Source: a virus. Taken from it: a stretch of 17,653 nucleotides of DNA. Both the position numbers and the translations under genes were made by a program. The number at the start of each line of letters is the position of its first letter. The first letter of the stretch is position 1. Shown here piece after piece: positions 6,445 to 17,653 of the stretch. The DNA lies in the IMG/VR virus record IMGVR_UViG_3300044445_000035; one strand, given 5' to 3'. The notes beneath the pieces were generated by a model that ran no database searches, was not told the DNA's origin, and saw only the letters and a program-made list of their open reading frames with translations.

Positions 6445-6861
6445 TCAGGCCGCCGCGAACGCGGGCTGGCCGTTGACCTGGAGCGAGATGGACGCGTTGT
6501 GCAGCGCCGACCCCGACCCACCCATGCGGCCAATCTCGACGAGCGCGTCGAACGTGACGACCTGGCCGCCTGCGGCGGGGGTGTACTTGAACGACTTCAC
6601 CTGACCGTGCCAGGCGATGAGCTGCTGCGCGAACGAGCCGGTCGTCTTCCAGTCCTGGTTGTACTCGATCTCCGCCACCCACGCGGGCGTGCCGACGTAG
6701 GACTGCACGCCGCCGCCGATGTCGGTGACCTGGCCCTTCGGGACGGAGGGCACGAGCGCGCACGAGGTGACGGCTGCGGTGTACTCGTCGCGGGTGGTCG
6801 AGGTACCCCCTTCGAGCTTGCCGGTACCGCCGTAGTAGACGGCGTTCGCGATCTTGGCCAT
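6445..6861 (-). CDS. Major tail protein (putative), 138 aa
   Basis: A strong GGAAGGGG Shine-Dalgarno precedes the ATG. The protein is small and Gly/Thr/Val-rich, located after the connector genes and before the tape measure. The call is positional. Confidence 0.55.
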   Translation of the reverse strand: MAKIANAVYYGGTGKLEGGTSTTRDEYTAAVTSCALVPSVPKGQVTDIGGGVQSYVGTPAWVAEIEYNQDWKTTGSFAQQLIAWHGQVKSFKYTPAAGGQVVTFDALVEIGRMGGSGSALHNASISLQVNGQPAFAAA

Positions 6862-6864
6862 GAG

Positions 6865-7272
6865 CTATTCCCCTTCCGAGGGAGCGATGTTGGTAAGGGC
6901 GGTGAGGGACACGCGCCACGCGAGCGGCCCGTTGTCGAGCTGCACCTTGCGGGCGGTGGAGAAGAACAGGTCATCGGCCTGCACGATCACCTGGACGATG
7001 CGCAGGACGTGGGAGTCGACGTCGGTCTCCGCGCCGCCGTCGTAGTCGGTGCGCGGGGTGGTCACGACAACGTCGATCGACGCGGCGACGGCCGAGCGGG
7101 GGAGCGGCTGCCCGCCCGCGCTGCTGCCGAACTCCGTGAACTCGAAGAACACGACCGGCACGAGCGATTCGGTGTATCCCTCGATGTGGTCGACCATGCG
7201 CCAGTCGGCGGGGAGCTGCGGGGTGAGGCGTTCGGCGAGCGTCGCGCGCAGGGTGGCCAGGTCAGAAAACAT
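6865..7272 (-). CDS. Head-tail joining, head closure or tail terminator-like protein, 135 aa
   Basis: ATG 7272 overlaps the upstream gene by 11 nt. GC3 is high. It lies between the adaptor and the major tail protein, and function is assigned by synteny only. Confidence 0.45.
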   Translation of the reverse strand: MFSDLATLRATLAERLTPQLPADWRMVDHIEGYTESLVPVVFFEFTEFGSSAGGQPLPRSAVAASIDVVVTTPRTDYDGGAETDVDSHVLRIVQVIVQADDLFFSTARKVQLDNGPLAWRVSLTALTNIAPSEGE

Positions 7273-7668: not shown

Positions 7669-8670
7669 TCAGCCCTCCGCGATGTAGGAAACGCCGGCCA
7701 CGTGAATGGTGGAGCCTGCGGACCACGAGCCGGTGAAGTTGAAAGCGAAGCTCGTCGGGACGATGCGCCCCGTGATCACGCCGTCGGCGAAGCTCACGAG
7801 GTTCATGCGCATGTTGGCTCGGGGGCGCACGCCCTCGGGGATTGTCCCGAGGGTCGTTCCCGCGGCGATCGAGGCCCCCGTGTTGTTGGTGATCTGCCCG
7901 AACCAGACGACCAGATTGCTTCCCGCGAACTTGCGAGCGGTGAAGCTCTGGCCGTCGCTCATCATGGGCACGAGAACGTCGGTGTACGCGGCGCTCGATC
8001 CGGCAGGCCCAGCGGGTCCCTGAGCGCCAGTCGCGCCCGTGTCACCCTTCGGGCCCTGGACACCTTGAATGCCCTGCGCTCCGGTGTCACCTTTCGGGCC
8101 GGTAGTCCCGGTGTCGCCCTTAGGACCTTGGATACCCTGTGGACCCTGAAGTCCGGTGTCACCCTTGATAGCCCCAATATTGTTCGCGTAGACCCACTGG
8201 CCGCTCGTGTATTGGAAGAAGTCTCGGCTGTCCGGATAGAGGAAGATATCTCCCTCAATCGGGTTGGCTACGTTGACGTAATCCGGGTTGGCAGCTTCGC
8301 TATGGAACCAGCGCCCCCCACGGATGCCCTGTGCTCCCGTGTCACCTTTCGCGCCCTGGATGCCCTGGGCGCCCTGTGATCCCGTGTCACCCTTCGCGCC
8401 CTGAGTGCCGGTGCCGCCCGTCAAGCCCGGCGGGCCTTGGGCGCCGGGCACACCCTGAACGCCTTGCGCTCCCGTCTCACCCTTCTCACCGGGGATACCC
8501 TGCGGTCCCTGTGCTCCTGTGTCGCCCTTCGCGCCCTGGATACCCTGCGGTCCAGCCGGACCCTGAGGGCCAGGTGACCCCGTGCCGCCTCCGGGTGCGG
8601 AGGTGAGAGGGGTGAGCACGAGACGGTCGCGTTCGTTGCTCTTTTCGAGGTCGATCCCGAGAATCGTCAT
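7669..8670 (-). CDS. Collagen-like (Gly-X-Y) repeat protein with a globular C-terminal domain; head fibre, decoration or fibre-like protein, 333 aa
   Basis: There are two G-X-Y tracts: residues 28-118 (about 30 triplets) and 166-224 (about 19 triplets). They are split by a 47-residue non-collagen insert (RWFHSEAANPDYVNVANPIEGDIFLYPDSRDFFQYTSGQWVYANNI). The last 109 residues are beta-rich. Confidence 0.8.
   Translation of the reverse strand: MTILGIDLEKSNERDRLVLTPLTSAPGGGTGSPGPQGPAGPQGIQGAKGDTGAQGPQGIPGEKGETGAQGVQGVPGAQGPPGLTGGTGTQGAKGDTGSQGAQGIQGAKGDTGAQGIRGGRWFHSEAANPDYVNVANPIEGDIFLYPDSRDFFQYTSGQWVYANNIGAIKGDTGLQGPQGIQGPKGDTGTTGPKGDTGAQGIQGVQGPKGDTGATGAQGPAGPAGSSAAYTDVLVPMMSDGQSFTARKFAGSNLVVWFGQITNNTGASIAAGTTLGTIPEGVRPRANMRMNLVSFADGVITGRIVPTSFAFNFTGSWSAGSTIHVAGVSYIAEG
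7999..8175 (-). repeat. Coding tandem G-X-Y repeat tract 2 of the collagen-like gene
   Basis: Residues G166..G224 with four KGDTG units. Near-identical DNA units such as ggtgtcaccctt/ggtgtcaccttt recur. Confidence 0.8.
8317..8589 (-). repeat. Coding tandem 9-nt (G-X-Y) repeat tract 1 of the collagen-like gene
   Basis: Recurring GGnGAyACnGGn / KGDTGAQG-encoding units. Codon positions were verified against the translation (G28..G118). Confidence 0.8.
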
Positions 8671-8706: not shown

Positions 8707-10458
8707 TTACGCGGCGGTGCCGATGAAGACGGTCGACTCGGGGCGGACGATGAACGTCTCGACGAAGCCGACGATCGAACGGTCGAGACCGAACTTCGCC
8801 ACCTCGACGGCGTCGATCTGGATCGGCGTCTCGCCCAGCTCCTTGAACTCGACGGCAGCCTTCGCGCCCGCGGCGACCTGCGGGTTCGCGGCGTTGGTGC
8901 CGGGGAAAGCCGACTGCGGGGCCTTCTTGACGACGACCTTGCCGTCGACGTTCGCCTCTCCGGTGCCGACGCCGACCTGCAGGGAGATGAACTCCGGCAG
9001 CAGCTCCTTCGGGGTGTAGATGAGCTGCGCCCACAGCACCGGGTTCACGATCGCCCACGAGGGGTCGTCGTCGGCGTCCGAGATCGCCTCGATCGCCTGG
9101 ATGAGCTGCACGACGCCGGGGTAGTAGGCGGAGTTCGCGGGCGTACCGGCGGGCAGCGAGCCGGGGGCGACGCGAGCCGAGAGGGCGGCGCCGTCGCGGT
9201 TCATCGCGACGCGAATGAGGGTGTCGCGCGCCTCGATGTCGGTCACCTTCGCGTAGCTGTCCGCGACGCCCTGCCAGAACTGCTGCATGATGTCGGCGCC
9301 GCCGGTGAGGTAGTTCCACTCCTGCGCGATGTCGGCGGCGTAGCCGTAGCTGTCACGGGTGGAGCTGCGCTTGCTGCTCGTCGCCGAGCCGGTCGGCAGC
9401 TCCTTCTTCTCGCCCGTGGTGCGCTTCTGCACGAGGCCCTCGGTGTCGTTCAGGCGGTAGCCCTCACGGCCGTTGATGTCGATCGGGCCGTAGACGTGCG
9501 TCGCGAGGTCGATGAACTTGCGGACGTAGCGCTTGCCCTGCCAGAGGCGGCCGACCCACGCCTTCGGGACCACGCCGTTCGAGAGGCTGCCGCCGGTCGT
9601 GATGTCGGCGAGGGCCATGAGAGCGCCCTCGGTGTCCTGGGATCGGGCGTTCTTCATCGCGTGCATGGCCGCGAAGAACGCGTTCATGTCGATGTCGGCG
9701 GGCTCGGGCGCGGGGGCCGGGGCACCGCTGAACAGGGCGGGGGCTGCGGGGGTCTGCGTCTCCGCGGGAGCGGCGGCAGCGGTCATGGTCTCCTCCTCGG
9801 AGTCGGTGGGGTTGGTGTCCTCGGCCGAGGTTTCGGCGTCGGTGATCTTCTCGACGGTGGACTTGCTGCTGTACTCCTCGATGCGGCGCCAGCGGACGCC
9901 CTCGGAGTCGGTGAATTCCGAGACGGTGCGGGAGCTGTTGTCGCGGTCGGGGGCGCTGTATTCGTCGGACGCGGGCACGTCGGTGGTGAACTCGACGTTC
10001 TGGCCGGGGGCGAGGGAGAACAGAGCGGCGGACTCGAACGCGCCGTCGATGCACACCGCTGCGCCGGTGAGGCGGGAGCGGACGGCGTTCGCGCCGTTGC
10101 GCACGAGGGATCCCAGCTCGGCCGAGAGCTTTCGCTTCCCGGTGCCGTCGCCGTAGGACGCGAGGAAGGCATCGCCTTCGTCGGTGTTCGCCACAGCGAA
10201 GCGGCCCACGACACCGGCGTCGGTCATCGTGAACGCAACGCCGCGACCGAGGGGGTTGAACCGGTCGTGCTCGTCATTCAGCGTGACGATCGAGGGATCG
10301 CGCGGCAGCGCCACGGCGGAGGCCGAGAACATGACGGGCTCAGTGCCGGAGAGGTTCGGGCGGGACAGCTCACCGAAGGGCAGCAGTAGGCCCTCGATCT
10401 CGCGAGAGTCGCCGACGCGGGAGAACAGACCGGCCTCGGTCGTAACAGTCGTGGTCAT
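8707..10458 (-). CDS. Prohead protease - scaffold-like linker - major capsid protein fusion, 583 aa
   Basis: The first ~170 residues look like an HK97-type prohead protease (EIEGLLLPFGELSRPN...VTLNDEHDRFNPLGR...). An acidic Ala/Pro linker follows (DAETSAEDTNPTDSEEETMTAAAAPAETQTPAAP). The last ~330 residues resemble an HK97-fold capsid protein. There is an ATGA overlap with the portal stop, and no separate protease or capsid ORF exists elsewhere. Confidence 0.75.
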   Translation of the reverse strand: MTTTVTTEAGLFSRVGDSREIEGLLLPFGELSRPNLSGTEPVMFSASAVALPRDPSIVTLNDEHDRFNPLGRGVAFTMTDAGVVGRFAVANTDEGDAFLASYGDGTGKRKLSAELGSLVRNGANAVRSRLTGAAVCIDGAFESAALFSLAPGQNVEFTTDVPASDEYSAPDRDNSSRTVSEFTDSEGVRWRRIEEYSSKSTVEKITDAETSAEDTNPTDSEEETMTAAAAPAETQTPAAPALFSGAPAPAPEPADIDMNAFFAAMHAMKNARSQDTEGALMALADITTGGSLSNGVVPKAWVGRLWQGKRYVRKFIDLATHVYGPIDINGREGYRLNDTEGLVQKRTTGEKKELPTGSATSSKRSSTRDSYGYAADIAQEWNYLTGGADIMQQFWQGVADSYAKVTDIEARDTLIRVAMNRDGAALSARVAPGSLPAGTPANSAYYPGVVQLIQAIEAISDADDDPSWAIVNPVLWAQLIYTPKELLPEFISLQVGVGTGEANVDGKVVVKKAPQSAFPGTNAANPQVAAGAKAAVEFKELGETPIQIDAVEVAKFGLDRSIVGFVETFIVRPESTVFIGTAA

Positions 10459-11543
10459 GGGGTTACCTCCTCCGAGGCGTCGCCCGCCTCGGGGTCGATG
10501 GATGTCGGGGCGGGCACGGAGAAATGCGAGAGATCGGCGCGCACCTCGGCACCGGGGCCGACCACGTCGTCACCGGAGAGGGCCGCGACGATCGCATAGG
10601 CGTACTCCGCCGATCCGTACGTCCACAGCTCCGACTGCCGGTCGTTCTCGTTCGAGTAGGACATCTGCCCGCCGCCGCCCTTGGACGACGACTCGACGAA
10701 GCTCGCGGGCACGCCCGCGTGCATCGCCAGCTCGCGCGAGAGCGACGCCTTCGCGTCCTCGAAGAGGTCGAGCTGGCCGGTGATGCCCCGCTCTTTCACG
10801 TCGATGTAGGACGGGGTGACGGAGACGGAGGTCTTCTGTCGGACCTCGACGTACCCCGTCGCGAGCGTTTCCTTCTCCGCCTTCGTCATCCCGTCGTACT
10901 TCGCGTCGGTGACGTGCAGCTCGGTCGCCGCGGGCGGGGCGTCCAGGCGGGATTGGCGGGCGGCTTCGAGCTTGCGGGCCTGGCGGATCGCGTCGATGCC
11001 GTCGACCATGACGCCGTTCGCGCCGAGGGGGACGACGACAATCCGCATGCGGTACTCGTCGGGGATGGACTCGTGCAGGGTGATCGCCTGCGTCTGCGTG
11101 TTCATCGTCCACAGGTGGCGGGGGACGGGCACCCAATCCCAGACGTTGCCGTTCACGTCGAGGCGGCAGGCGAGAACTCCGAAGCCCTCCCAGAACAACT
11201 CTTCGACGAGCTTCTTGTAGGCGATGTACCGGCTCATGCCGGGGTACGCGCACGATGCCACCCAATACGGCTGCACCGGGTTGGGCTCGTCCGCGCCGGG
11301 GGTCCACTGCTCGAAGCGGAGCGGGGCGACAAGCGCCTGATGTGCCTTGACCGCGCGCTTCAGCTCGGGGACGCGAGGCGCGTTGTCCCGGGTGACAGCC
11401 TCTTTCGGGAGGTGGCCGACGATGTCACCGACGATCGCCTGCGCGAGGCTGTCACCCGATCCGGGAGCCGCGAGGGCGGGCGCGCCGACGGATGCCGAGG
11501 GTGAGGGCTTCCCCAACAGCCAGTCAACAAACGCATTCGCCAC
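10455..11543 (-). CDS. Portal protein, 362 aa
   Basis: It lies between the terminase and the capsid gene, has a typical size and an acidic C-terminus. GTG start with a weak Shine-Dalgarno. The call is synteny-based. Confidence 0.7.
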   Translation of the reverse strand: MANAFVDWLLGKPSPSASVGAPALAAPGSGDSLAQAIVGDIVGHLPKEAVTRDNAPRVPELKRAVKAHQALVAPLRFEQWTPGADEPNPVQPYWVASCAYPGMSRYIAYKKLVEELFWEGFGVLACRLDVNGNVWDWVPVPRHLWTMNTQTQAITLHESIPDEYRMRIVVVPLGANGVMVDGIDAIRQARKLEAARQSRLDAPPAATELHVTDAKYDGMTKAEKETLATGYVEVRQKTSVSVTPSYIDVKERGITGQLDLFEDAKASLSRELAMHAGVPASFVESSSKGGGGQMSYSNENDRQSELWTYGSAEYAYAIVAALSGDDVVGPGAEVRADLSHFSVPAPTSIDPEAGDASEEVTP

Positions 11544-11595
11544 GGCATGAATGTAGCATTGTGCTCACTCGAAACGCGTAGTGCTGCGCACATTG

Positions 11596-13236
11596 CTACG
11601 CACCGGCGAAGATATCGGCCAGCGAGCCAATCTCCGTCTCATCCTCAAGGGCGTACAGCGCACGCGATATCGCTTCGACCGGCGTCACGTCATCGTCGGG
11701 TCGGGACCTCTCGTCGGGTCGACCGAAGCCGAACGATCCGGTCTCGCCGAGCTTGCGCTTCACGGCGATGTCGGCGGCGTCGTCGAGGGGCTGCTGCGAG
11801 TAATGCTCGAAGCTGCCCTCTTTGAGGAGCTTGAGCATGAGCACGGTGGCGCGCCCGACGTCGCGAGTTCCGAGGGAGCGCGCCTGAATCGGGGGAGCGG
11901 ACGCGAGCAGCGGGCCGATCTCGACGGCCTCAGGGGATCGCCGGTCGTCGTAGACGATCCGGCGTTGGTGCTTCCGGTAGGTGAGGAGGATCTGATTCCG
12001 AAGGCCGTCCACGCCCTCCTGATGGTGCAGCAGCGCGGCGTGACGGCGCTCGCCCTCGCCCTTCCACGCCGCCGCGATCGAGGCCCAGCGTCCGTCAGGG
12101 TGGATCGCCACCGCGACCGCCATGAGCGACGGGAGTTCGAGGGTCGCCAGCTCAGCGGCGGGGCGGGCGGCGTCCTTCCAGTGCTTCGAGGGGATGAGGG
12201 CGGTGTTCGATCCCTCCTCGCCGATCTTCCCCAGGTACTCCGCGTCGAACGCGCCGGGGGTGACCTTCATCGCCTTCCAGTTGTCATGCACGTCGGACAG
12301 CGGCGTCGTGTACCCGATGCCCGGGTGGTACAGCTCGACCAGCTCGCGGACCCGCGCGCGGGGGTGCGCGTCGTCGGGCTCCCACGCCTCAAGCTCCTCG
12401 GGGTCGGTGTCGTCGGGGATGCCGTGCCGGAGGATGCCCGCTCCTTCCATCGTGAGGAGGTTCCACAGCAGATTCCCGCGGCGGAAGTCCGGGGCCGTGC
12501 CGGACCCGATCATCTGCGGGCGGTCGCGACCGTCGAGCGTGGGAGGGATCGAGGTCATGAGGTCGGCGCCGACGTCGGGCGTCGCGTCCTGCGCCTCGTC
12601 GACCCACGCGATGTCGTACGCGCCCGAGGTGAACGCCTCGTTCCCCGGCGCGTAGGCGTTGAAGTAAGTCCCGCGGTCGCGCCACTCGATCGCCTCCTGA
12701 CCCTTGCCCTTGTTGATCACGAACGGCCGCGTCTTCGGGTCGGGGTAGAGCCGTTCGAGGTGGTTGACGATGTCCTTCCGGAATCGCTCGCCGGTCTTCT
12801 GTCCGCCGTCGCGCTTCGTCATCGTCCACCCGACGAGGTAGTCATCGCGGAACGTGCATCGTCCGAGGATGACCGCTTGCACGGCTGTCGTCTTCGTGGT
12901 GCGCCGGGGCTCGAGAATCGCGTTGAACTTCCGACCGGCGTTCAGCATGTCGGCGATCACGAGCTGCACGGGCGAGGGACCGAAACCCCCGTCCGAGCGG
13001 CGGCGGCGATCCATGCGGAGCAACCTCGCACCCTCCAGGAACTCCCGCCGGGTGTTCTCGGTCGTGACCAGCTCGGTGACCTGAGACGCGACCGGGATCC
13101 GCGACCGCCACTCGACCCATGTCCCCTCGTCCTGAAGGTCGCTGAGCGTCGGCAGAGCGCGGGTCACGGGGTCCACCCCTCGGGGAGGGGGGCGCGTGTT
13201 GAGGCGAAGCCGGGGGTTGCCGAGGGAGGCCCCCAA
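11596..13236 (-). CDS. terL: Terminase large subunit; start uncertain (TTG 13236 or GTG 13167)
   Basis: Walker A-like AILEPRRTTKTTAV, Walker B YDIAWVDEAQD, and a C-terminal nuclease-like region. GTG 13167 has a GAGGGG motif upstream and would give 523 aa. Confidence 0.8.
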   Translation of the reverse strand: MGASLGNPRLRLNTRPPPRGVDPVTRALPTLSDLQDEGTWVEWRSRIPVASQVTELVTTENTRREFLEGARLLRMDRRRRSDGGFGPSPVQLVIADMLNAGRKFNAILEPRRTTKTTAVQAVILGRCTFRDDYLVGWTMTKRDGGQKTGERFRKDIVNHLERLYPDPKTRPFVINKGKGQEAIEWRDRGTYFNAYAPGNEAFTSGAYDIAWVDEAQDATPDVGADLMTSIPPTLDGRDRPQMIGSGTAPDFRRGNLLWNLLTMEGAGILRHGIPDDTDPEELEAWEPDDAHPRARVRELVELYHPGIGYTTPLSDVHDNWKAMKVTPGAFDAEYLGKIGEEGSNTALIPSKHWKDAARPAAELATLELPSLMAVAVAIHPDGRWASIAAAWKGEGERRHAALLHHQEGVDGLRNQILLTYRKHQRRIVYDDRRSPEAVEIGPLLASAPPIQARSLGTRDVGRATVLMLKLLKEGSFEHYSQQPLDDAADIAVKRKLGETGSFGFGRPDERSRPDDDVTPVEAISRALYALEDETEIGSLADIFAGA

Positions 13237-13264
13237 AAAACGGCGGGCTCGCGGGTGTTCGGTG

Positions 13265-13564
13265 TCACGCCCATGCGGGTGTCACCATTCCTGTCTGTCG
13301 TGCCTTGCGGCGTTGGTTCGTGATGCGAGCGCCGAGGCGTCCGCCGTGGCTGCGGTTCTCCCCGCGGTGCTCGGGTGCCGCGTTGTCCAGCCCCTCGCCG
13401 CCGTTCACGTTGAGGTGGCCCACGTCCCACCGCTGACCCGGCTCGATGAGGTAGCCGCACCGCCAGCACGGCACGTCCTCGCCCCGCGCGTGGGCCTGTG
13501 CGACCTGCGTGCGGACGATCTTGCACGTGCGCCGCCACTCGGGGCTCTGATGCTTCGCAGTCAT
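13265..13564 (-). CDS. HNH endonuclease, 99 aa
   Basis: CWRCGYLI...WDVGHLNVNGG...NAAPEHRGENRSHGG matches the phage HNH layout (CxxC, D-x-x-H, N, H). An AGGAGAGG Shine-Dalgarno lies 9 nt upstream of the ATG. It sits immediately upstream of terL, as in HNH-dependent cos packaging modules. Confidence 0.7.
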   Translation of the reverse strand: MTAKHQSPEWRRTCKIVRTQVAQAHARGEDVPCWRCGYLIEPGQRWDVGHLNVNGGEGLDNAAPEHRGENRSHGGRLGARITNQRRKARQTGMVTPAWA

Positions 13565-13621
13565 TGCTCTGTACCTCTCCTGCTCATCCCTCTTCGTCCC
13601 TCATCTGTGGGGCCGCTGCGG

Positions 13622-13668
13622 GTGTACCCGTGTACCCGCCCCTAAGGGGCGGGGGTACACAGGTACAC
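13622..13668. promoter_or_regulatory. Large imperfect inverted repeat (hairpin or cruciform) built from GTGTACC / GGTACAC units
   Basis: The left arm is GTGTACC-C-GTGTACCC-GCCCC, the loop is TAA, and the right arm is GGGGC-GG-GGGTACAC-A-GGTACAC. The arms are about 21 nt, with one 2-nt bulge and one mismatch. Confidence 0.7.
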
Positions 13669-13687
13669 TCCGGCGGCTGGGGCAGTG

Positions 13688-13734
13688 GTGTACCGGGTAC
13701 GTACCTCAGGTACGTCAGGTACGCCGGGTACGCC
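13688..13734. repeat. Iteron-like GGTAC(G/A) direct repeat array, including three units at 9-bp spacing
   Basis: The sequence reads GTGTACC GGGTACGTACC TCAGGTACGT CAGGTACGC CGGGTACGC C. GGTACG starts at 13696, 13709, 13718 and 13727. The array overlaps the last codons (RTRRT*) of the ATPase gene. Confidence 0.7.
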
Positions 13735-14992
13735 ATTCCCGAAGGGCTGTCTGAGCTCGGGTGTCGCCCCACGCCATGCGGTCCTTCACGTCTCGAACGC
13801 TCTTCGGTGCGGGGTCCAGACCGTCGAGGGTGGCGATGTCGGCCTCGAGAGCGGCGGCCGCGCGGGCCTCCTTGTCGGCCTGGATCTCGGTCGCGCTCTT
13901 GCCTCGGGTGAAGCGCACGTTCAGCTCCTCGGACATGACCGGCGTCAGGCTGCCGTCGTCGGCGGTGTCGACCCGCTCGATCGGGTGCGTGAACTGCACG
14001 AACGCCGCCACGGAGCGCGCCTCTCGGTGCCCGCCTCGGTCCTTCGCGACGGTGATGGTCACGTACCCGTTTGCGCTCCTCGAGAATGGCTCAATGACGT
14101 TCAGCACGTACTGCGCCCCGGTGATCGCGGCGCGCTTGCGCTGCGAGCCGATGGGCCAGAGCCCGCCGTCATCGCTCTTCGTCATGTGATCGAGCAACAC
14201 GACGCACGCGCCAGCATCCGCGAGGGGGTGCGGGATCTGCTGGAACCAGGCCGCGACCTCCTCATCCGCGTTCTGGTTCTTCCCCGCGGCGGCGATCGAC
14301 TCACCCGTCGAGTCCACGATGACCAGCGCGTCGGGTGTCGCCCTGACCCGCTCGATCATCGCCTCGATCCCGGCCCGGTCGTGGCCCTCGGGGTGGACGT
14401 AGTGGAACCGTCCTCGCACATGGTCCGAGGGAACGCGCAGGACGCTGACCAGACGTTGCAACGCGAGAGCCGCGGTGTCTTCATAGTCGAGGTAGTAGAC
14501 GTGCTTCCCGGCGGCCAGGTGCTCGGCTGCGGTCGCGAGCACGACCCAGCCCTTACCGCCGCCGGACTCACCCGCGAGGCCGTTCACGCGCCCAGCGTAG
14601 AAGAGTCCGCCGCCTCCGTCGTCGACCTGGCCCACGGTCGGCACCGGCAGCGTGAGCGTCCCGGCGTCGATCTGGTCGAGGATGTCGTCGAGCGGGTGAT
14701 CGTCCCAGCTCGCCGCGTCTCCACTGCCGAACGTGACGGAAGAGCCGCCTCGATCGCTCGCGGGCACCTCGGACGGATCGACTGTTGCGTCGTAGGTCTG
14801 GAAGAGTGCCTTTCGCCACCGCTGCTCTCGGGTCGAGATCCGCTGGCCTGTCGTCGGGTCGTAGCCCTCGAAGGCCCACGTCTCGCGCTCGACGTATCCC
14901 CACGTCATCCACTCGTCGGGCTGCTGATAACCGTCGTCCTCGAACTCGGCAAGGCGGTTCGATGAATAGACCACGGTTGCTCCTCCGGTCAT
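13715..14992 (-). CDS. RepA/DnaB-like RecA-fold ATPase (AAA_25-type replication protein), 425 aa
   Basis: Walker A GLAGESGGGKGWV, Walker B PDALVIVDSTGES, and a downstream LLDHMTKS motif. I place the start at ATG 14992, which forms an ATGA overlap with the upstream ORF stop. The track ORF extends to 15118 with an Arg/Pro-rich, non-coding-looking N-terminus. Confidence 0.75.
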   Translation of the reverse strand: MTGGATVVYSSNRLAEFEDDGYQQPDEWMTWGYVERETWAFEGYDPTTGQRISTREQRWRKALFQTYDATVDPSEVPASDRGGSSVTFGSGDAASWDDHPLDDILDQIDAGTLTLPVPTVGQVDDGGGGLFYAGRVNGLAGESGGGKGWVVLATAAEHLAAGKHVYYLDYEDTAALALQRLVSVLRVPSDHVRGRFHYVHPEGHDRAGIEAMIERVRATPDALVIVDSTGESIAAAGKNQNADEEVAAWFQQIPHPLADAGACVVLLDHMTKSDDGGLWPIGSQRKRAAITGAQYVLNVIEPFSRSANGYVTITVAKDRGGHREARSVAAFVQFTHPIERVDTADDGSLTPVMSEELNVRFTRGKSATEIQADKEARAAAALEADIATLDGLDPAPKSVRDVKDRMAWGDTRAQTALREWRTRRT

Positions 14993-15270
14993 GCGCTTAC
15001 CTGCGGGGCGGAGCGGCCTCGACCTGCGCGCTCCGCGAGAAGCTCGAGGCACCGCCGTTGCGTCTTCTCGCCGGTCGGGCGGATCGACTCGGGGTTGTCG
15101 TCGTGGCGCGAGCTGCACTCACAGCACGGCTGATCGCGCCAGCTCTCGAAGCTGCGCTGTCCGCCAGCCTCGAAGTAGTCGATGAAGGCAGAGACCTCAT
15201 CGCTCAGACGGTTCCAGGCGTCGCTACCGGGCTGAATGTCGGGGCGTTCGTGGCCCTCGCACGCGCTCAC
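14989..15270 (-). CDS. Hypothetical Cys-containing protein, 93 aa
   Basis: High GC3 throughout, GTG start in a GTGA overlap with the upstream micro-ORF, and stop in an ATGA overlap with the ATPase gene. It contains a CCECS cluster. I recognise no family. Confidence 0.6.
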   Translation of the reverse strand: MSACEGHERPDIQPGSDAWNRLSDEVSAFIDYFEAGGQRSFESWRDQPCCECSSRHDDNPESIRPTGEKTQRRCLELLAERAGRGRSAPQVSA

Positions 15271-15392
15271 AGCGACACCGCCGTAAGGCCGACGATGAAA
15301 CCCCAGGCCCAGCCGACTGCACCAGCGAGCGAGAGAGTCCCGACGAATGCGAGGGTGACGACCGCGGCCTCAAGGCGCGACGGGGCGCTCAT
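15267..15392 (-). CDS. Micro-ORF for a 41-aa single-pass membrane peptide; absent from the ORF track
   Basis: My translation is MSAPSRLEAAVVTLAFVGTLSLAGAVGWAWGFIVGLTAVSL. The start is in an ATGA overlap with the upstream stop and the stop is in a GTGA overlap with the next start, so it exactly bridges two coupled genes. Confidence 0.5.
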   Translation of the reverse strand: MSAPSRLEAAVVTLAFVGTLSLAGAVGWAWGFIVGLTAVSL

Positions 15393-15610
15393 CGCTGACC
15401 GCCCCGGACAATGAGGACCGTCAGACGCGACGCCTGAGCGTCGGTGAGGGCGGGTGCGCCGTCGAGGTTGCGGCGGATCGCCTGTTCGATGTTGGCGGCG
15501 GCGAGGTCACGACGCGCGTCGCGAGTGCTGGGGTGATCTTCGCCGTGCAGGTGGCGACGGCGGCTGTAGCTGCCCGCGGCCTGTCGGACGGTGGGGTGGT
15601 CGGTAGACAC
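15389..15610 (-). CDS. Hypothetical small protein, first gene of the early/replication operon, 73 aa
   Basis: GTG start with a strong AAGGAG Shine-Dalgarno 6 nt upstream, and high GC3. I recognise no family; it could be a small regulator or a recombination directionality factor. Confidence 0.6.
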   Translation of the reverse strand: MSTDHPTVRQAAGSYSRRRHLHGEDHPSTRDARRDLAAANIEQAIRRNLDGAPALTDAQASRLTVLIVRGGQR

Positions 15611-15726
15611 TTCGGCTCCTTCGATGGGAGCCGCGGTCGCCGCAACTGGCCTTGGGGTACGTCACCTCGACGGTGGCGATTCGTTGCGCTAGCCCCGCGC
15701 GGCGGGGTGGTTGTTGTGTTGTGGTT

Positions 15727-15772
15727 GAGCAAGTGTCCTTGCTCGATGCATCCAAGCAAAGCACATTGCTCG
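15727..15772. promoter_or_regulatory. 46-bp imperfect dyad centred on GATGCATC, with three CGAGCAA/TTGCTCG motifs; candidate operator or attP
   Basis: The sequence is GAGCAAGTGTCCTTGCTC-GATGCATC-CAAGCAAAGCACATTGCTCG. The left arm is itself a perfect 7-bp hairpin (GAGCAAG tgtc CTTGCTC). It lies in the ~210-bp gap between the integrase stop and the early operon. Confidence 0.5.
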
Positions 15773-15819
15773 CCGTGATACTTCATCTGACCAGGAACTT
15801 TTTCGTGATACGGAGCGAC

Positions 15820-17283
15820 CTACAGAGCCGCGATGGTGACACGTTCTGGGGCGTCGGGACGGTTCACGACGACCGACAGGTGCCGTCGCGCGAGCCCTCG
15901 GCGCTCCTCGATGTCGAGGGTCGTCCACAGCCGCTCCCACGTCGCCAGGGCCTCCGCGCCCTCGAATGTCCCGCCCCATTCCATCGGGTCGGCGCGCCAG
16001 GCTTCTAGCACGCGATAGAGCGTGCGCGCGGCCTCGGAAAGCGGCGCTGAGCCCGCGTTGCGTGCGGCCTCGATTGCCTCGCGCACGCCCGTCAGCTCGG
16101 CCTGTAGGCCACGAGCGCGCGCGAGGTCGTCGGCGCCGCCGAACTCCGAGAAGAGGCCCTTCGCGCGCGCGAGCTGCGCGGCAGTGTCGGCCTCCTCGCG
16201 CACCAGGCGCGCCAGCTCAGGCGAGGCGTCCGACTCGTCCACGCCCGCGCCCATCGCTGCGCGAAGCTCGGGCAGGGCGGCAGACTCCAGTAGCTCCGCC
16301 TTGATGCGAGCGTGACCCGGCGGGGTGGGCATGCCCGGAGTGCGCGCGGCCTCGGCGATGAGCCGACACGTGTAGCCGGGGGCGTAGTTGCCGCGCGACC
16401 AGTACGAACCGACTCGAAGAGGCTCACCGCACGCGCAGGTCGCGACACCCGACAGCCACCGTTCGCCGGTCGGCCGTCCCGAGGGCTTCCGGCTCGCTCC
16501 CGACCCGAGGATCGCGACCGCAGCCTCCCAGACCTCCAGCGACACAATCGGCGTGATCTTCGACGCTGCGGCCCGCTCGCCGTTCGCGATCAGGATCCCG
16601 GCGTTGCGCTCTCGGGTGAGGGTGTTCCGCGCCGTGACCGCGCTCCATTCGCTACCGCGGAGGGTGCGCCAGCCAGCGGCGTTCCAGCCTCGGGCGATCT
16701 GCCGGACGGGTACGCCCGCCAGCACGTCGGCGTACGCCTGACGGATCAGCTCGGCCTCATCCTCCCGAGGGGTCATCCCGTTCGCCTCGTAGCCGAACAC
16801 GCGCGGCCGACCGGCGGGGATGCCTTGCCTCACGCCTTCGGAGTTGCGGAACTTCCGCCGCTCTGACGTTCTCTCCGCCTCGGCGGCGTCCCACGCGGCC
16901 ACCGTGCGGGCCGTGGCCCGCCCGTCCGCGGTGTTGAGGTCGTAGCGGGGCGACACCTTGTAGAGGTAGCTCACCCCGCGGCGCTGCGCGAGCGAGATCA
17001 GGCGCTCCCACTCGGCGGGTCGGCGCGTGAGGCGCGACATCGAGTAGCTGACGATGGTGTCAAACTCTCCTCGCTCCGCGGCTTCGAGCAACGCCTCGAA
17101 TCCGGGACGTGGCTTTCGGGAATTTGTCGACGCCGATGTGTCGTTGTCTTTGTAGACGGCCGTCACCGTCAGGCCGTGCTGAGCGGCCAGCTCCCGACCG
17201 GCGGCCTCCTGATTTGAGGTGCCGACCTCCGACCCTTCGGCGTCACGAGAGATTCGACAGTAGAGAGCGCAGGAGTATGACAC
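15820..17283 (-). CDS. int: Large serine recombinase (phage integrase), 487 aa
   Basis: The N-terminal resolvase-type catalytic motif is ALYCRISRD...GTSNQEAAGRELAAQHG...DNDTSAS. It is followed by a recombinase domain, a Cys-rich zinc-ribbon-like segment (CACGEPLRVGSYWSRGNYAPGYTC) and an Ala/Glu/Arg-rich coiled-coil-like C-terminus. GTG start. Confidence 0.9.
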   Translation of the reverse strand: MSYSCALYCRISRDAEGSEVGTSNQEAAGRELAAQHGLTVTAVYKDNDTSASTNSRKPRPGFEALLEAAERGEFDTIVSYSMSRLTRRPAEWERLISLAQRRGVSYLYKVSPRYDLNTADGRATARTVAAWDAAEAERTSERRKFRNSEGVRQGIPAGRPRVFGYEANGMTPREDEAELIRQAYADVLAGVPVRQIARGWNAAGWRTLRGSEWSAVTARNTLTRERNAGILIANGERAAASKITPIVSLEVWEAAVAILGSGASRKPSGRPTGERWLSGVATCACGEPLRVGSYWSRGNYAPGYTCRLIAEAARTPGMPTPPGHARIKAELLESAALPELRAAMGAGVDESDASPELARLVREEADTAAQLARAKGLFSEFGGADDLARARGLQAELTGVREAIEAARNAGSAPLSEAARTLYRVLEAWRADPMEWGGTFEGAEALATWERLWTTLDIEERRGLARRHLSVVVNRPDAPERVTIAAL

Positions 17284-17329
17284 GCAACAAGATTAAGATC
17301 GACGTGTCCTAGTCGTCAATTCTTGCGTG
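17281..17329. promoter_or_regulatory. AT-richer imperfect inverted repeat in the divergent int/HEPN intergenic region; candidate attP or operator
   Basis: CACGCAA ... TTGCGTG are perfect 7-bp termini around CAAGATTAAGATCGACGTGTCCTAGTCGTCAATTC, with partial internal symmetry (GATCGACG / CGTCAATTC). A second palindrome, GGTCGTggACGACC, lies at 17334..17347. Confidence 0.4.
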
Positions 17330-17372
17330 TCGAGGTCGTGGACGACCGGCCCGCGCCGGGTACGTTGACCCT

Positions 17373-17653
17373 GTGACGTTGGAACCAGGGGAAGCCGTTG
17401 CGGTGTTCGAGACCGCACTACGTACAGCCATTCGCGAATTGCTCCCGAGCTGGCAATCGAAGCTCGGCGCTGAGGCCGTCGCCCGCCTTCGGGATAAGCA
17501 GGTCGAGGACGACAAGAAACGGGACGGCGCGGTCACTAGTGCCGACCTGCTTGACTACACGGAGACTACGCAATTAACTCGACTCGTCGAGAAGAATTGG
17601 GAAACGTTCAAGCCGGTATTTCAGGATCAGGCCCGCCTGAAAGTGATGTTCGG
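17373..17653 (+). CDS. Swt1-like HEPN domain protein, N-terminal part; continues at window position 1 across the circular junction
   Basis: GTG 17373 is the first start after the in-frame TAG at 17310..17312, and the frame is open to the window end. It translates as VTLEPGEAVAVFETALRTAIRELLPSWQSKLGAEAVARLRDKQVEDDKKRDGAVTSADLLDYTE.... The last 127 nt duplicate 1..127. The Shine-Dalgarno is weak, so the exact start is uncertain. Confidence 0.7.
   Translation, partial: MTLEPGEAVAVFETALRTAIRELLPSWQSKLGAEAVARLRDKQVEDDKKRDGAVTSADLLDYTETTQLTRLVEKNWETFKPVFQDQARLKVMF
17527..17653. repeat. Terminal direct repeat, copy 2; identical to 1..127
   Basis: Exact 127/127 identity with the window start. Confidence 0.9.

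Follow-up and report, generated by a model that had tools for sequence, protein, structure and literature searches.

Locus and features

We analyzed the virus record IMGVR_UViG_3300044445_000035 of IMG/VR, whose whole stretch of 17,653 nucleotides is called the window here, and in particular an array of short repeats with a GTAC core that lies at the 3′ end of an ATPase gene of the AAA_25 family. The window is a small temperate siphovirus-like genome of an actinobacterial phage, with a guanine-plus-cytosine (GC) content of 68%. Nearly all of its genes lie on the minus strand, and their transcription order is integrase, small genes, AAA_25 ATPase, GTAC array, HNH endonuclease and terminase (TerL). 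A sequence-only reading had proposed that the array is either a replication origin, made of iterons beside a RepA-like ATPase, or a cos/pac packaging site, with the same likelihood for both. The features of the gene end and the array are given below, with repeat units written in gene orientation and the basis of each feature in brackets.

13715..14974, minus strand: AAA_25 RecA-fold ATPase gene, proposed initiator-helicase (Pfam, PHROG and structure model)
13718..13903, minus strand: C-terminal three-helix domain of the ATPase, 62 amino acids (aa), residues 406-467, proposed unit reader (structure model)
13686..13734, minus strand: block of 7-bp units straddling the ATPase stop codon (sequence reading; the layout recurs in relatives)
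13732-13726, 13723-13717 and 13714-13708, minus strand: three direct CGTACCY units at 9-bp spacing
13705-13696, minus strand: abutting inverted pair GGTACGTACC
13694-13688, minus strand: single inverted GGTACAC
13669..13687, minus strand: spacer of about 18 nt from the direct block to the palindrome (folding)
13622..13668: palindrome with two GTGTACC units per arm, the units of the two arms facing each other (sequence and folding)
13610..13621, minus strand: flank CCCGCAGCGGCC after the palindrome (sequence reading)
13565..13609, minus strand: tract that is purine-rich on the coding strand, 53-55% GC, with the HNH ribosome-binding site (composition)
13576-13570, minus strand: degenerate unit AGGTACA within the purine-rich tract, not conserved in the related locus L005

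The tetranucleotide GTAC occurs 58 times in the window, ten of these copies fall at 13624-13731 and an eleventh lies at 13571. From the background density, some 0.29 copies are expected in 108 bp (Poisson P about 1e-12), and no more than 4 were reached per 108 bp in 300 Markov-1 simulations; the dense cluster described by the sequence-only reading is therefore not random. The heptamer GTGTACC was found 6 times against 1.05 expected, with five of the six copies inside the array. Altogether the array holds 11 copies of a 7-bp unit (GTGTACC/CGTACCY) within 13570-13734, and the ATPase stop codon lies inside it. Tandem Repeats Finder reported a period of 9 with 3.6 copies; the 9-bp phasing noticed earlier is present and is shared by four GTAC copies (13701, 13710, 13719 and 13728) rather than three. 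A general restriction or avoidance signal was rejected as the explanation of the GTAC copies, as 52 are expected in the window against the 58 present.

Single units are also scattered outside the array. There are 15 lone BGTACCY units, a mild excess over the approximately 6.8 that would be expected in the window as a whole, and most of them are CGTACCC (examples at 214, 3512, 6016, 7633, 10850, 11242, 14062, 15655, 16708 and 17358). The related GTAC strings which had been pointed out at 213, 244 and 17357 do occur, as isolated single units and not as clusters; the HEPN label given to the neighbouring open reading frame (ORF) 195-896 was not supported by any Pfam, PHROG or NCBIfam family.

The ATPase ends in ...ALREWRTRRT* with its stop codon at 13715-13717, and the array runs into the last codons of the gene as had been claimed, two units being coding (CGT ACC) and a third lying across the stop. 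The palindrome was likewise found as described, with a GC clamp (CCCGCCCC/GGGGCGGG) around a TAA loop at 13643-13645. On folding, the stem reaches about 13613-13677, with a free energy for DNA of -31.3 kcal/mol (z = -7.3 against shuffles), and the spacer segment GCCGCCGG pairs with CCGCAGCGGC located past the palindrome; the RNA fold of the array region has -92.6 kcal/mol with z = -6. Windows of 40 bp over the array have 62-75% GC, and scans for Rfam families, tRNA genes, sigma-70 promoters and canonical terminators gave nothing at the array. The polypyrimidine tract of the sequence-only reading was recovered, 13560-13609 being 80% pyrimidine on the plus strand (55% GC), and the tract also contains the HNH ribosome-binding site. 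Similar A/G-rich tracts follow the palindrome in L009, L035, L036 and phage Dagobah, and it is possible, with some uncertainty, that the tract at 13565..13609 is an easily melted flank. In L005, a phage contig that is 95% identical, nine substitutions were counted over the 191-nt array region, three of them in the spacer 13669..13687; this contig keeps neither the GTAC at 13571, the eleventh, nor one of the direct units.

Distribution of the array among ATPase homologues

Loci with homologues of the ATPase (L numbers) were drawn from genomes, metagenomes, viral contigs and one cultured phage, and the DNA after each stop codon was read; the linkage count covers the 43 loci with a readable gene end. 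In 36 of these 43 loci a short-unit array is present at or just after the stop codon, so that the array is conserved in relatives and is linked to the ATPase gene. Seven loci have no array (L011, L012, L020, L038, L047, L028 and L050), and the first five of them have different C-termini, with coding sequence after the gene.

The layout is conserved together with the gene. In homologues which keep the C-terminal sequence of the window, the units come first as direct copies and then as an abutting inverted pair, and a spacer of about 18 nt leads on to the palindrome. Blocks straddling the stop codon and built from other unit sequences were found in L006, L007, L010, L029-L036, L051 and L052, and a palindrome with two units per arm follows the ATPase homologues of L006-L010, L029-L036 and L051-L053, again with a GC clamp and a loop of 2-4 nt. 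Sequences like the flank of the window (CCCGGAGCGGCCC and CCCGTAGCGGCC) occur in L006, L007 and L010, which belong to the GCTACT class, though their units differ. The units are distributed as follows.

GTGTACC: window, L005, L009, L036
GTGTAYYC: L035
TGCACCC: L029, L030, L031, L033, L034, L051
GCTACT: L006, L007, L010, L052
GCTACTC: L008
GCGCTACC: L032
GCGCTCC: L053
ACCTCGTCCC, ACCCCGTCCC or ACTGGGTCCC: Streptomyces loci, more distant homologues with other C-termini
ATTCGCCC: L039, distant homologue with another C-terminus
GTGGTTCC: L040, distant homologue with another C-terminus
GGTGCATCC: L046, distant homologue with another C-terminus
TGAACCGGT: Streptomyces phage Dagobah, distant homologue with another C-terminus

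Two of the distant groups deserve a separate description. In the cultured phage Dagobah (MT711977, 38540-38760; L049, 3660-3880), at least nine TGAACCGGT units straddle the stop codon of the gene for a ‘RadB-like protein’ and are followed by a hairpin and an A-rich tract, and from its sequence this array may be an unannotated origin. In the Streptomyces loci L014-L018 and L022-L026, long ACCTCGTCCC arrays interspersed with GATCTTGAA and CTTGATCGCTTGA lie about 100-260 nt after the ATPase stop codon and contain CTTGAT, the proposed nick motif of the RepAM type.

The genes on the far side of the array vary. HNH and TerL follow it in the window, L005 and L031, and in L006, L007, L029, L030 and L051 it stands between the ATPase gene and a convergent gene with no HNH or TerL gene adjacent. 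Four elements (L007, L010, L029 and L030) are integrated beside tRNA genes, and there the array is intact 3-4 kb inside the element. This observation bears on the possibility that the serine integrase uses the imperfect palindrome as attP for recombination. In its size and its imperfect dyad symmetry the palindrome is indeed like serine-integrase attP sites; against this, the array is 2.1 kb away from the integrase gene, the palindrome layout occurs with tyrosine as well as serine integrases, and it is intact inside the four tRNA-integrated elements, by which the attP reading is excluded for practical purposes. A partition centromere, that is a repeat array like parS or parC, would also agree with the short direct and inverted heptads, as these resemble some centromere sites. 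We regard it as extremely improbable, because no ParA or ParB family was found among the approximately 16 window ORFs scanned, and because the element encodes an integrase and its relatives are integrated into chromosomes.

The ATPase and its proposed reading of the units

The longest ORF of the ATPase extends to 15118 (467 aa), and a start near 14974 was taken from a relative of 419 aa (P0001); the core covers residues 170-405 of the 467-aa ORF. Its sole Pfam match is AAA_25 (E = 2.8e-7) and its PHROG match is 695, ‘DNA polymerase/primase’. NCBIfam gave only weak RadB, IstB and Hda matches, and PDB sequence searches matched the ATPase only to the RecA superfamily and gave nothing for the C-terminal domain. 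In the AlphaFold2 model a RecA-fold core is joined to a C-terminal three-helix unit (predicted local distance difference test, pLDDT, above 90 in the full model), and Foldseek relates the core to RAD51 paralogues, KaiC and RecA. The C-terminal domain contains the motif S-V441-R-D...W..R....LREWR and reaches a pLDDT of 94 when modelled alone. A profile of this domain collected 176 representative clusters; in 7 of 10 sampled an AAA_25 core is present, in one case together with a DnaB N-terminal domain and in one with Prim-Pol. More than 120 homologues of the ATPase were found in Actinobacteria, many of them fused to Prim-Pol or Toprim, a domain which the window ATPase does not have, and some to the DnaB N-terminal domain; those of cultured phages carry the annotation DNA primase/helicase. 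The models and domain fusions fit a DnaB/RepA-like replicative helicase with its own site-specific DNA-binding module.

The unit class and the C-terminal domain vary together. The class follows residue X (441 in the window) of the motif S/G/N-X-R-D...W..R: GTGTACC units are found where X is V or F, TGCACCC where it is Y, GCTACT where it is Q and GCGCTACC where it is T. Loci with GCTACT, GCGCTACC or TGCACCC units share 62-66% identity with the window core, against 49-51% for the GTGTACC clade, and L010 (GCTACT) is equally close to L029 (TGCACCC, 77%) and to its own class. Judged by these identities, unit class does not run parallel to overall relatedness of the ATPase. Predictions of the unit from residue X were also written down before the DNA was fetched, and two of the three firm ones came true: behind homologue P0014 (Y) there are 11 copies of TGCACC and a palindrome, and behind P0008 (Q) 8 copies of GCTACT and a palindrome. 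From this pattern we propose that the C-terminal three-helix domain is the reader of the units.

Other proteins encoded nearby were considered as readers and rejected. The HTH_17 protein is 81-85% identical between L006 and L030, and the convergent 135-aa protein is 68% identical between L006 and L029, in both cases across unit classes. The small upstream proteins are unrelated between L029/L030 and L031, though TGCACCC is common to all three loci, and the presence of the 93-aa and 73-aa small upstream genes of the window is not in step with unit class.

Two further explanations of the array have to be weighed against this co-variation. According to the first, the GC-rich hairpin is a terminator, which ends the early/replication transcript in the window and two convergent transcripts in relatives, and the repeats are incidental. 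The stability of the hairpin (given above for RNA), its location 47 nt past the stop codon and the placing of the array between convergent genes in several relatives speak for a terminator. However, no U tract or T run follows the stem and the terminator scan returned 0 sites (though the stem may be a tail-less actinobacterial terminator), and a terminator leaves unexplained why direct units lie outside the stem, why each arm has two identical units and why unit classes track a residue of the ATPase. As the whole explanation of the array it is therefore quite unlikely, while termination may be a secondary function of the hairpin.

According to the second, the array is an operator, bound by the ATPase C-terminal domain or by another regulator for control of transcription and without any origin function. 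The co-variation which supports binding by the ATPase counts equally here, the array of the window stands just upstream of the HNH-TerL operon, and a regulatory role has been discussed for RepAM sites too (PMC2440964). On the other side, the array is flanked by convergent genes in at least five relatives, a position in which a promoter would not be expected, a sigma-70-like promoter scan found none at the array, and the paired inverted units resemble known helicase-loading origins. We consider a purely regulatory array unlikely, with a modest share of probability left to it.

A probable packaging site between HNH and TerL

The second proposal of the sequence-only reading was that the array is the recognition and cut site of terminase and HNH on the concatemer. 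It had in its favor that the array lies upstream of the HNH-TerL module and that no TerS was found in family-library scans of the window proteins, which agrees with the earlier statement. The relevant features are these.

13265..13564, minus strand: HNH endonuclease gene, 99 aa, with the array on one side and the cos-like motif on the other (PHROG 1808)
13185..13245, minus strand: cos-like motif TTTTTTGGGGGCCTCCCTCGGCAACCCCCGGCTTCGCCTCAACA|CGCGCC in the HNH-TerL spacer (alignment to PensacolaC28 ends)

Homologues of the HNH gene adjoin TerL in L001, L002 and L004. The nearest cultured relative of the window is Microbacterium phage PensacolaC28 (TerL 39% and HNH 55% identical), the genome ends of which have a 3′ single-stranded overhang (PMC11895466). 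In its linear record the HNH gene is last (ending at 16687) and the terminase gene first (starting at 37), and the joined ends read ...TTTTTTATGACTCGCAGTGCAACCCCCGCCTTTGGCTCTTCA|GGCGTG.... The junction motif GCAACCCCCG.CT..G.CTC is kept in the window at 13220-13191 and in L001, L002, L003 and L005, and the longer window motif TTTTTTGGGGGCCTCCCTCGGCAACCCCCGGCTTCGCCTCAACA|CGCGCC, which spans 13240-13191 on the minus strand, also occurs in these four loci. The HNH-TerL spacer (13168-13264) measures 97 bp in the window and about 98 bp in PensacolaC28; here the TerL start was inferred from L005 as the GTG at 13167, the TTG at 13236 of the ORF list being too far upstream. A search of more distant DNA with the cos-like motif gave chance matches only.

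The window and the HNH-dependent cos phages represented by PensacolaC28 are thus alike in the motif at 13240-13185, in the gene order with HNH last and TerL first, and in the end within the spacer; they differ in the GTAC array, which is across the HNH gene from this motif and is without a PensacolaC28 counterpart. By homology to PensacolaC28 a genome end is predicted at 13197/13196, about 420-540 bp from the array with the HNH gene in between, and it is in the interval from HNH to terminase, not at the array, that cos appears to be located. The array is outside the spacer, upstream of HNH, and the spacer holds another, conserved motif. No GTAC cluster is present in L001-L004, which have related HNH and TerL genes. 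Three of them, L001, L002 and L003, have no ATPase homologue either, with TerL 81, 72 and 57% identical and HNH 81, 66 and 57% identical to the window. The cos reading of the array is therefore unsupported, and since the array layout also recurs beside ATPase genes without adjacent HNH or TerL, we consider it highly improbable.

Proposed mechanism and its weight

The linkage of array and gene, the fixed layout and the co-variation of units with the C-terminal domain together favor the origin proposal of the sequence-only reading. The array is probably the origin at which the adjacent AAA_25 ATPase starts replication, or at the least its specific binding array, and the ATPase would act as a self-loading initiator-helicase, in the manner of the Rep-ori of staphylococcal pathogenicity islands or of RepAM of pMEA300, which are functional precedents; binding of the units, melting of the duplex and initiation by the ATPase are our inference from sequence. 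In this scheme the ATPase would be made from the early operon, and its C-terminal three-helix domain would recognise the 7-bp GTGTACC/CGTACCY units. The direct units at the stop codon of its gene would nucleate an oligomer, and the palindrome 13622-13668, as helicase-loading core, would offer two opposed pairs of units on which two facing rings could assemble; alternatively, a cruciform might be extruded and the duplex would open nearby. Priming would come from the host or from another enzyme, because the window ATPase has no Prim-Pol or Toprim domain. Between the early genes and the HNH-terminase operon, transcription may in addition be halted by the stable hairpin.

Several observations weigh against this interpretation. 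There is no AT-rich unwinding element at the array, the centre of the palindrome being a GC clamp, and the nearest softer DNA, with 53-55% GC, is not the minimum of the genome, which lies at 17284-17653 and 1-470. The GC skew of the window, proposed earlier as a check, has no clear inflection or origin signal. Foldseek gave no significant match for the C-terminal domain (best E = 2.4), the non-significant list being mostly helix-turn-helix regulators. The blind prediction for P0022 (Y) failed: at its locus L050, a close homologue with a Y-type C-terminus, no array was found within the 3.8 kb fetched, so that L050 is either an exception to the array rule or has its array elsewhere in the contig. 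P0026, with S-Q-A-D in place of the motif, has a new unit; the residue rule is therefore incomplete, and more than X must enter into the code. The purpose of binding by the ATPase could also be autoregulation or termination instead of initiation. As a separate observation on L050, the next gene overlaps the ATPase stop codon.

A wider proposal is put forward tentatively and with more doubt than confidence. The arrays might belong to an undescribed class of self-loading helicase-initiators of actinobacterial phages and tRNA-integrated elements, in which a DnaB/RepA-like AAA_25 helicase of RecA fold carries a three-helix reader of about 60 residues for 7-8-bp units at the 3′ end of its own gene. 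A single residue or a small number of them (X of S-X-R-D: V/F, Y, Q or T) would for the most part set the origin specificity, and in place of the usual AT-rich element two opposed rings would be loaded at a palindrome that has a GC clamp and two units in each arm.

Genome context

Bases 1-127 are duplicated exactly at 17527-17653, and the window is accordingly a circular assembly with a unit of 17,526 bp; the duplication is probably an artefact of k-mer overlap. The first gene in transcription order is the following, after which the small genes come.

17283-15820, minus strand: serine integrase

The lowest GC of the genome, at 17284-17653 and 1-470, flanks this integrase, with 40-bp windows down to 40% GC, and is likely a regulatory or attP region. 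Two ORFs, 17309-17536 with 75 aa and 15421-15786 with 121 aa, are apparently spurious. Upstream of the ATPase, the small minus-strand genes 14989-15270 (93 aa) and 15389-15610 (73 aa) are kept in L005 and L031; their proteins matched no known family and are candidates for replication or regulatory partners.

Downstream of TerL the genes encode a portal, then a capsid-protease fusion and a tail protein of collagen-like type, with other tail genes and lysis genes in addition. A megablast of 11000-16000 against cultured phages gave no match. The capsid-protease fusion (8707-10458, 583 aa) resembles gp3 of PensacolaC28. The collagen-like tail protein (7669-8670) has repeats with a 45-nt period, and in L001 the first 175 residues of the corresponding protein, up to the contig end, are 100% identical to those of the window, compared with 81-90% for the rest of the genome, and this jump points to a mosaic exchange. 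Between portal and capsid, L005 has an extra 101-aa gene (6702-7007) with a match to Acb2_Tad1_hairpin (PF24729, an anti-defence sponge), for which the window has no equivalent at that place. The 242-aa protein encoded at 1365-2093 on the minus strand, in the lysis region, has a GDSL-lipase domain and may be a LysB-like esterase.

Significance of the findings

That a replication gene has an origin next to it is no surprise biologically; the testable lead lies in the family-wide layout, the swapped units and the candidate specificity residue. Packaging site and replication origin, which are easily confused in small cos phages, are now separated with coordinates. For annotation of Actinobacteria the findings provide the rule that a replication module is marked by AAA_25 with the C-terminal domain, followed by an array of short units and by a palindrome whose arms have two units each, and the swapped units with their matching residues form a natural series for studying the evolution of origin specificity and incompatibility. 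If the ATPase gene and array are self-replicating, they could give compact compatible replicons for Microbacteriaceae and other high-GC hosts, and a helicase of RecA fold, should it prove to load itself, would be a counterpart of the AAA+ self-loading helicases of phage P4 and of the islands of pathogenicity in Staphylococcus aureus (SaPIs).

Comparison with known systems

No description of iterons linked to AAA_25 helicases was found in the full-text literature, subscription literature being outside the search. The alpha protein of phage P4, which goes with ori and crr, is a primase-helicase and uses its C-terminal domain to bind octamers that are repeated at the origin. Reading of origin repeats by the C-terminal domain of a helicase is proposed here as well, whereas P4 is a proteobacterial satellite with a superfamily-3 helicase and with repeats at two loci several kb apart. 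The origin cores of SV40 large T and papillomavirus E1 have four short units as two inverted pairs in a palindrome, on which two opposed hexamers are assembled. The window palindrome is like them in having four units as two inverted pairs, and differs in that theirs are eukaryotic viruses with superfamily-3 helicases and with flanking AT-rich and early-palindrome elements. RSF1010 RepA is the archetypal RecA-fold helicase of the AAA_25 type, and the RSF1010 oriV has iterons and inverted repeats, the iterons being read by a separate protein, RepC. The AAA_25-type fold is shared with the window, where the helicase appears to carry the reader domain itself. In the RSF1010 RepB′/ssi system, inverted repeats of 40 nt are primase sites (PMC8567376).

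Purified RepAM of pMEA300 binds hairpin-forming repeats of 8 bp, which lie where the gene encoding it has its 3′ end (PMC2440964). Systems of this type belong to actinomycete integrative conjugative elements; their hairpins contain a pC194-like CTTGAT nick motif, and rolling-circle replication was proposed for them (PMC2440964, PMC3218068). An actinobacterial mobile element, short identical repeats at the rep 3′ end and a stable hairpin are shared with the window. RepAM is a DUF3631 protein (PF12307), while the only Pfam match of the window ATPase is AAA_25, and membership of the RepAM type is ruled out by this difference of family; neither CTTGAT nor ATCAAG is present in 13560-13740 on either strand.

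The SaPI Rep protein is a helicase which is also the initiator by means of its C-terminal DNA-binding domain, and it binds six to twelve short iterons directly downstream of the rep ORF; the SaPI origin has at least two iterons per side in opposite orientation, and the specificity differs between islands (PMC9371898). The window shares with it at least six short repeats (11 units here) at or overlapping the rep 3′ end, and two oppositely oriented units on each side of a centre (13622-13668). In SaPIs this centre is an AT-rich region, while here it is the GC-clamped hairpin CCCGCCCC-TAA-GGGGCGGG, and SaPI Rep is of the AAA+ SF3 type with a winged-helix C-terminal domain, while the window ATPase is a RecA-fold AAA_25 protein with a three-helix bundle. 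Because the helicase fold, the type of C-terminal domain and the AT-rich centre differ, the window array is not a member of the SaPI family, and the SaPI Rep-ori is its functionally closest system.

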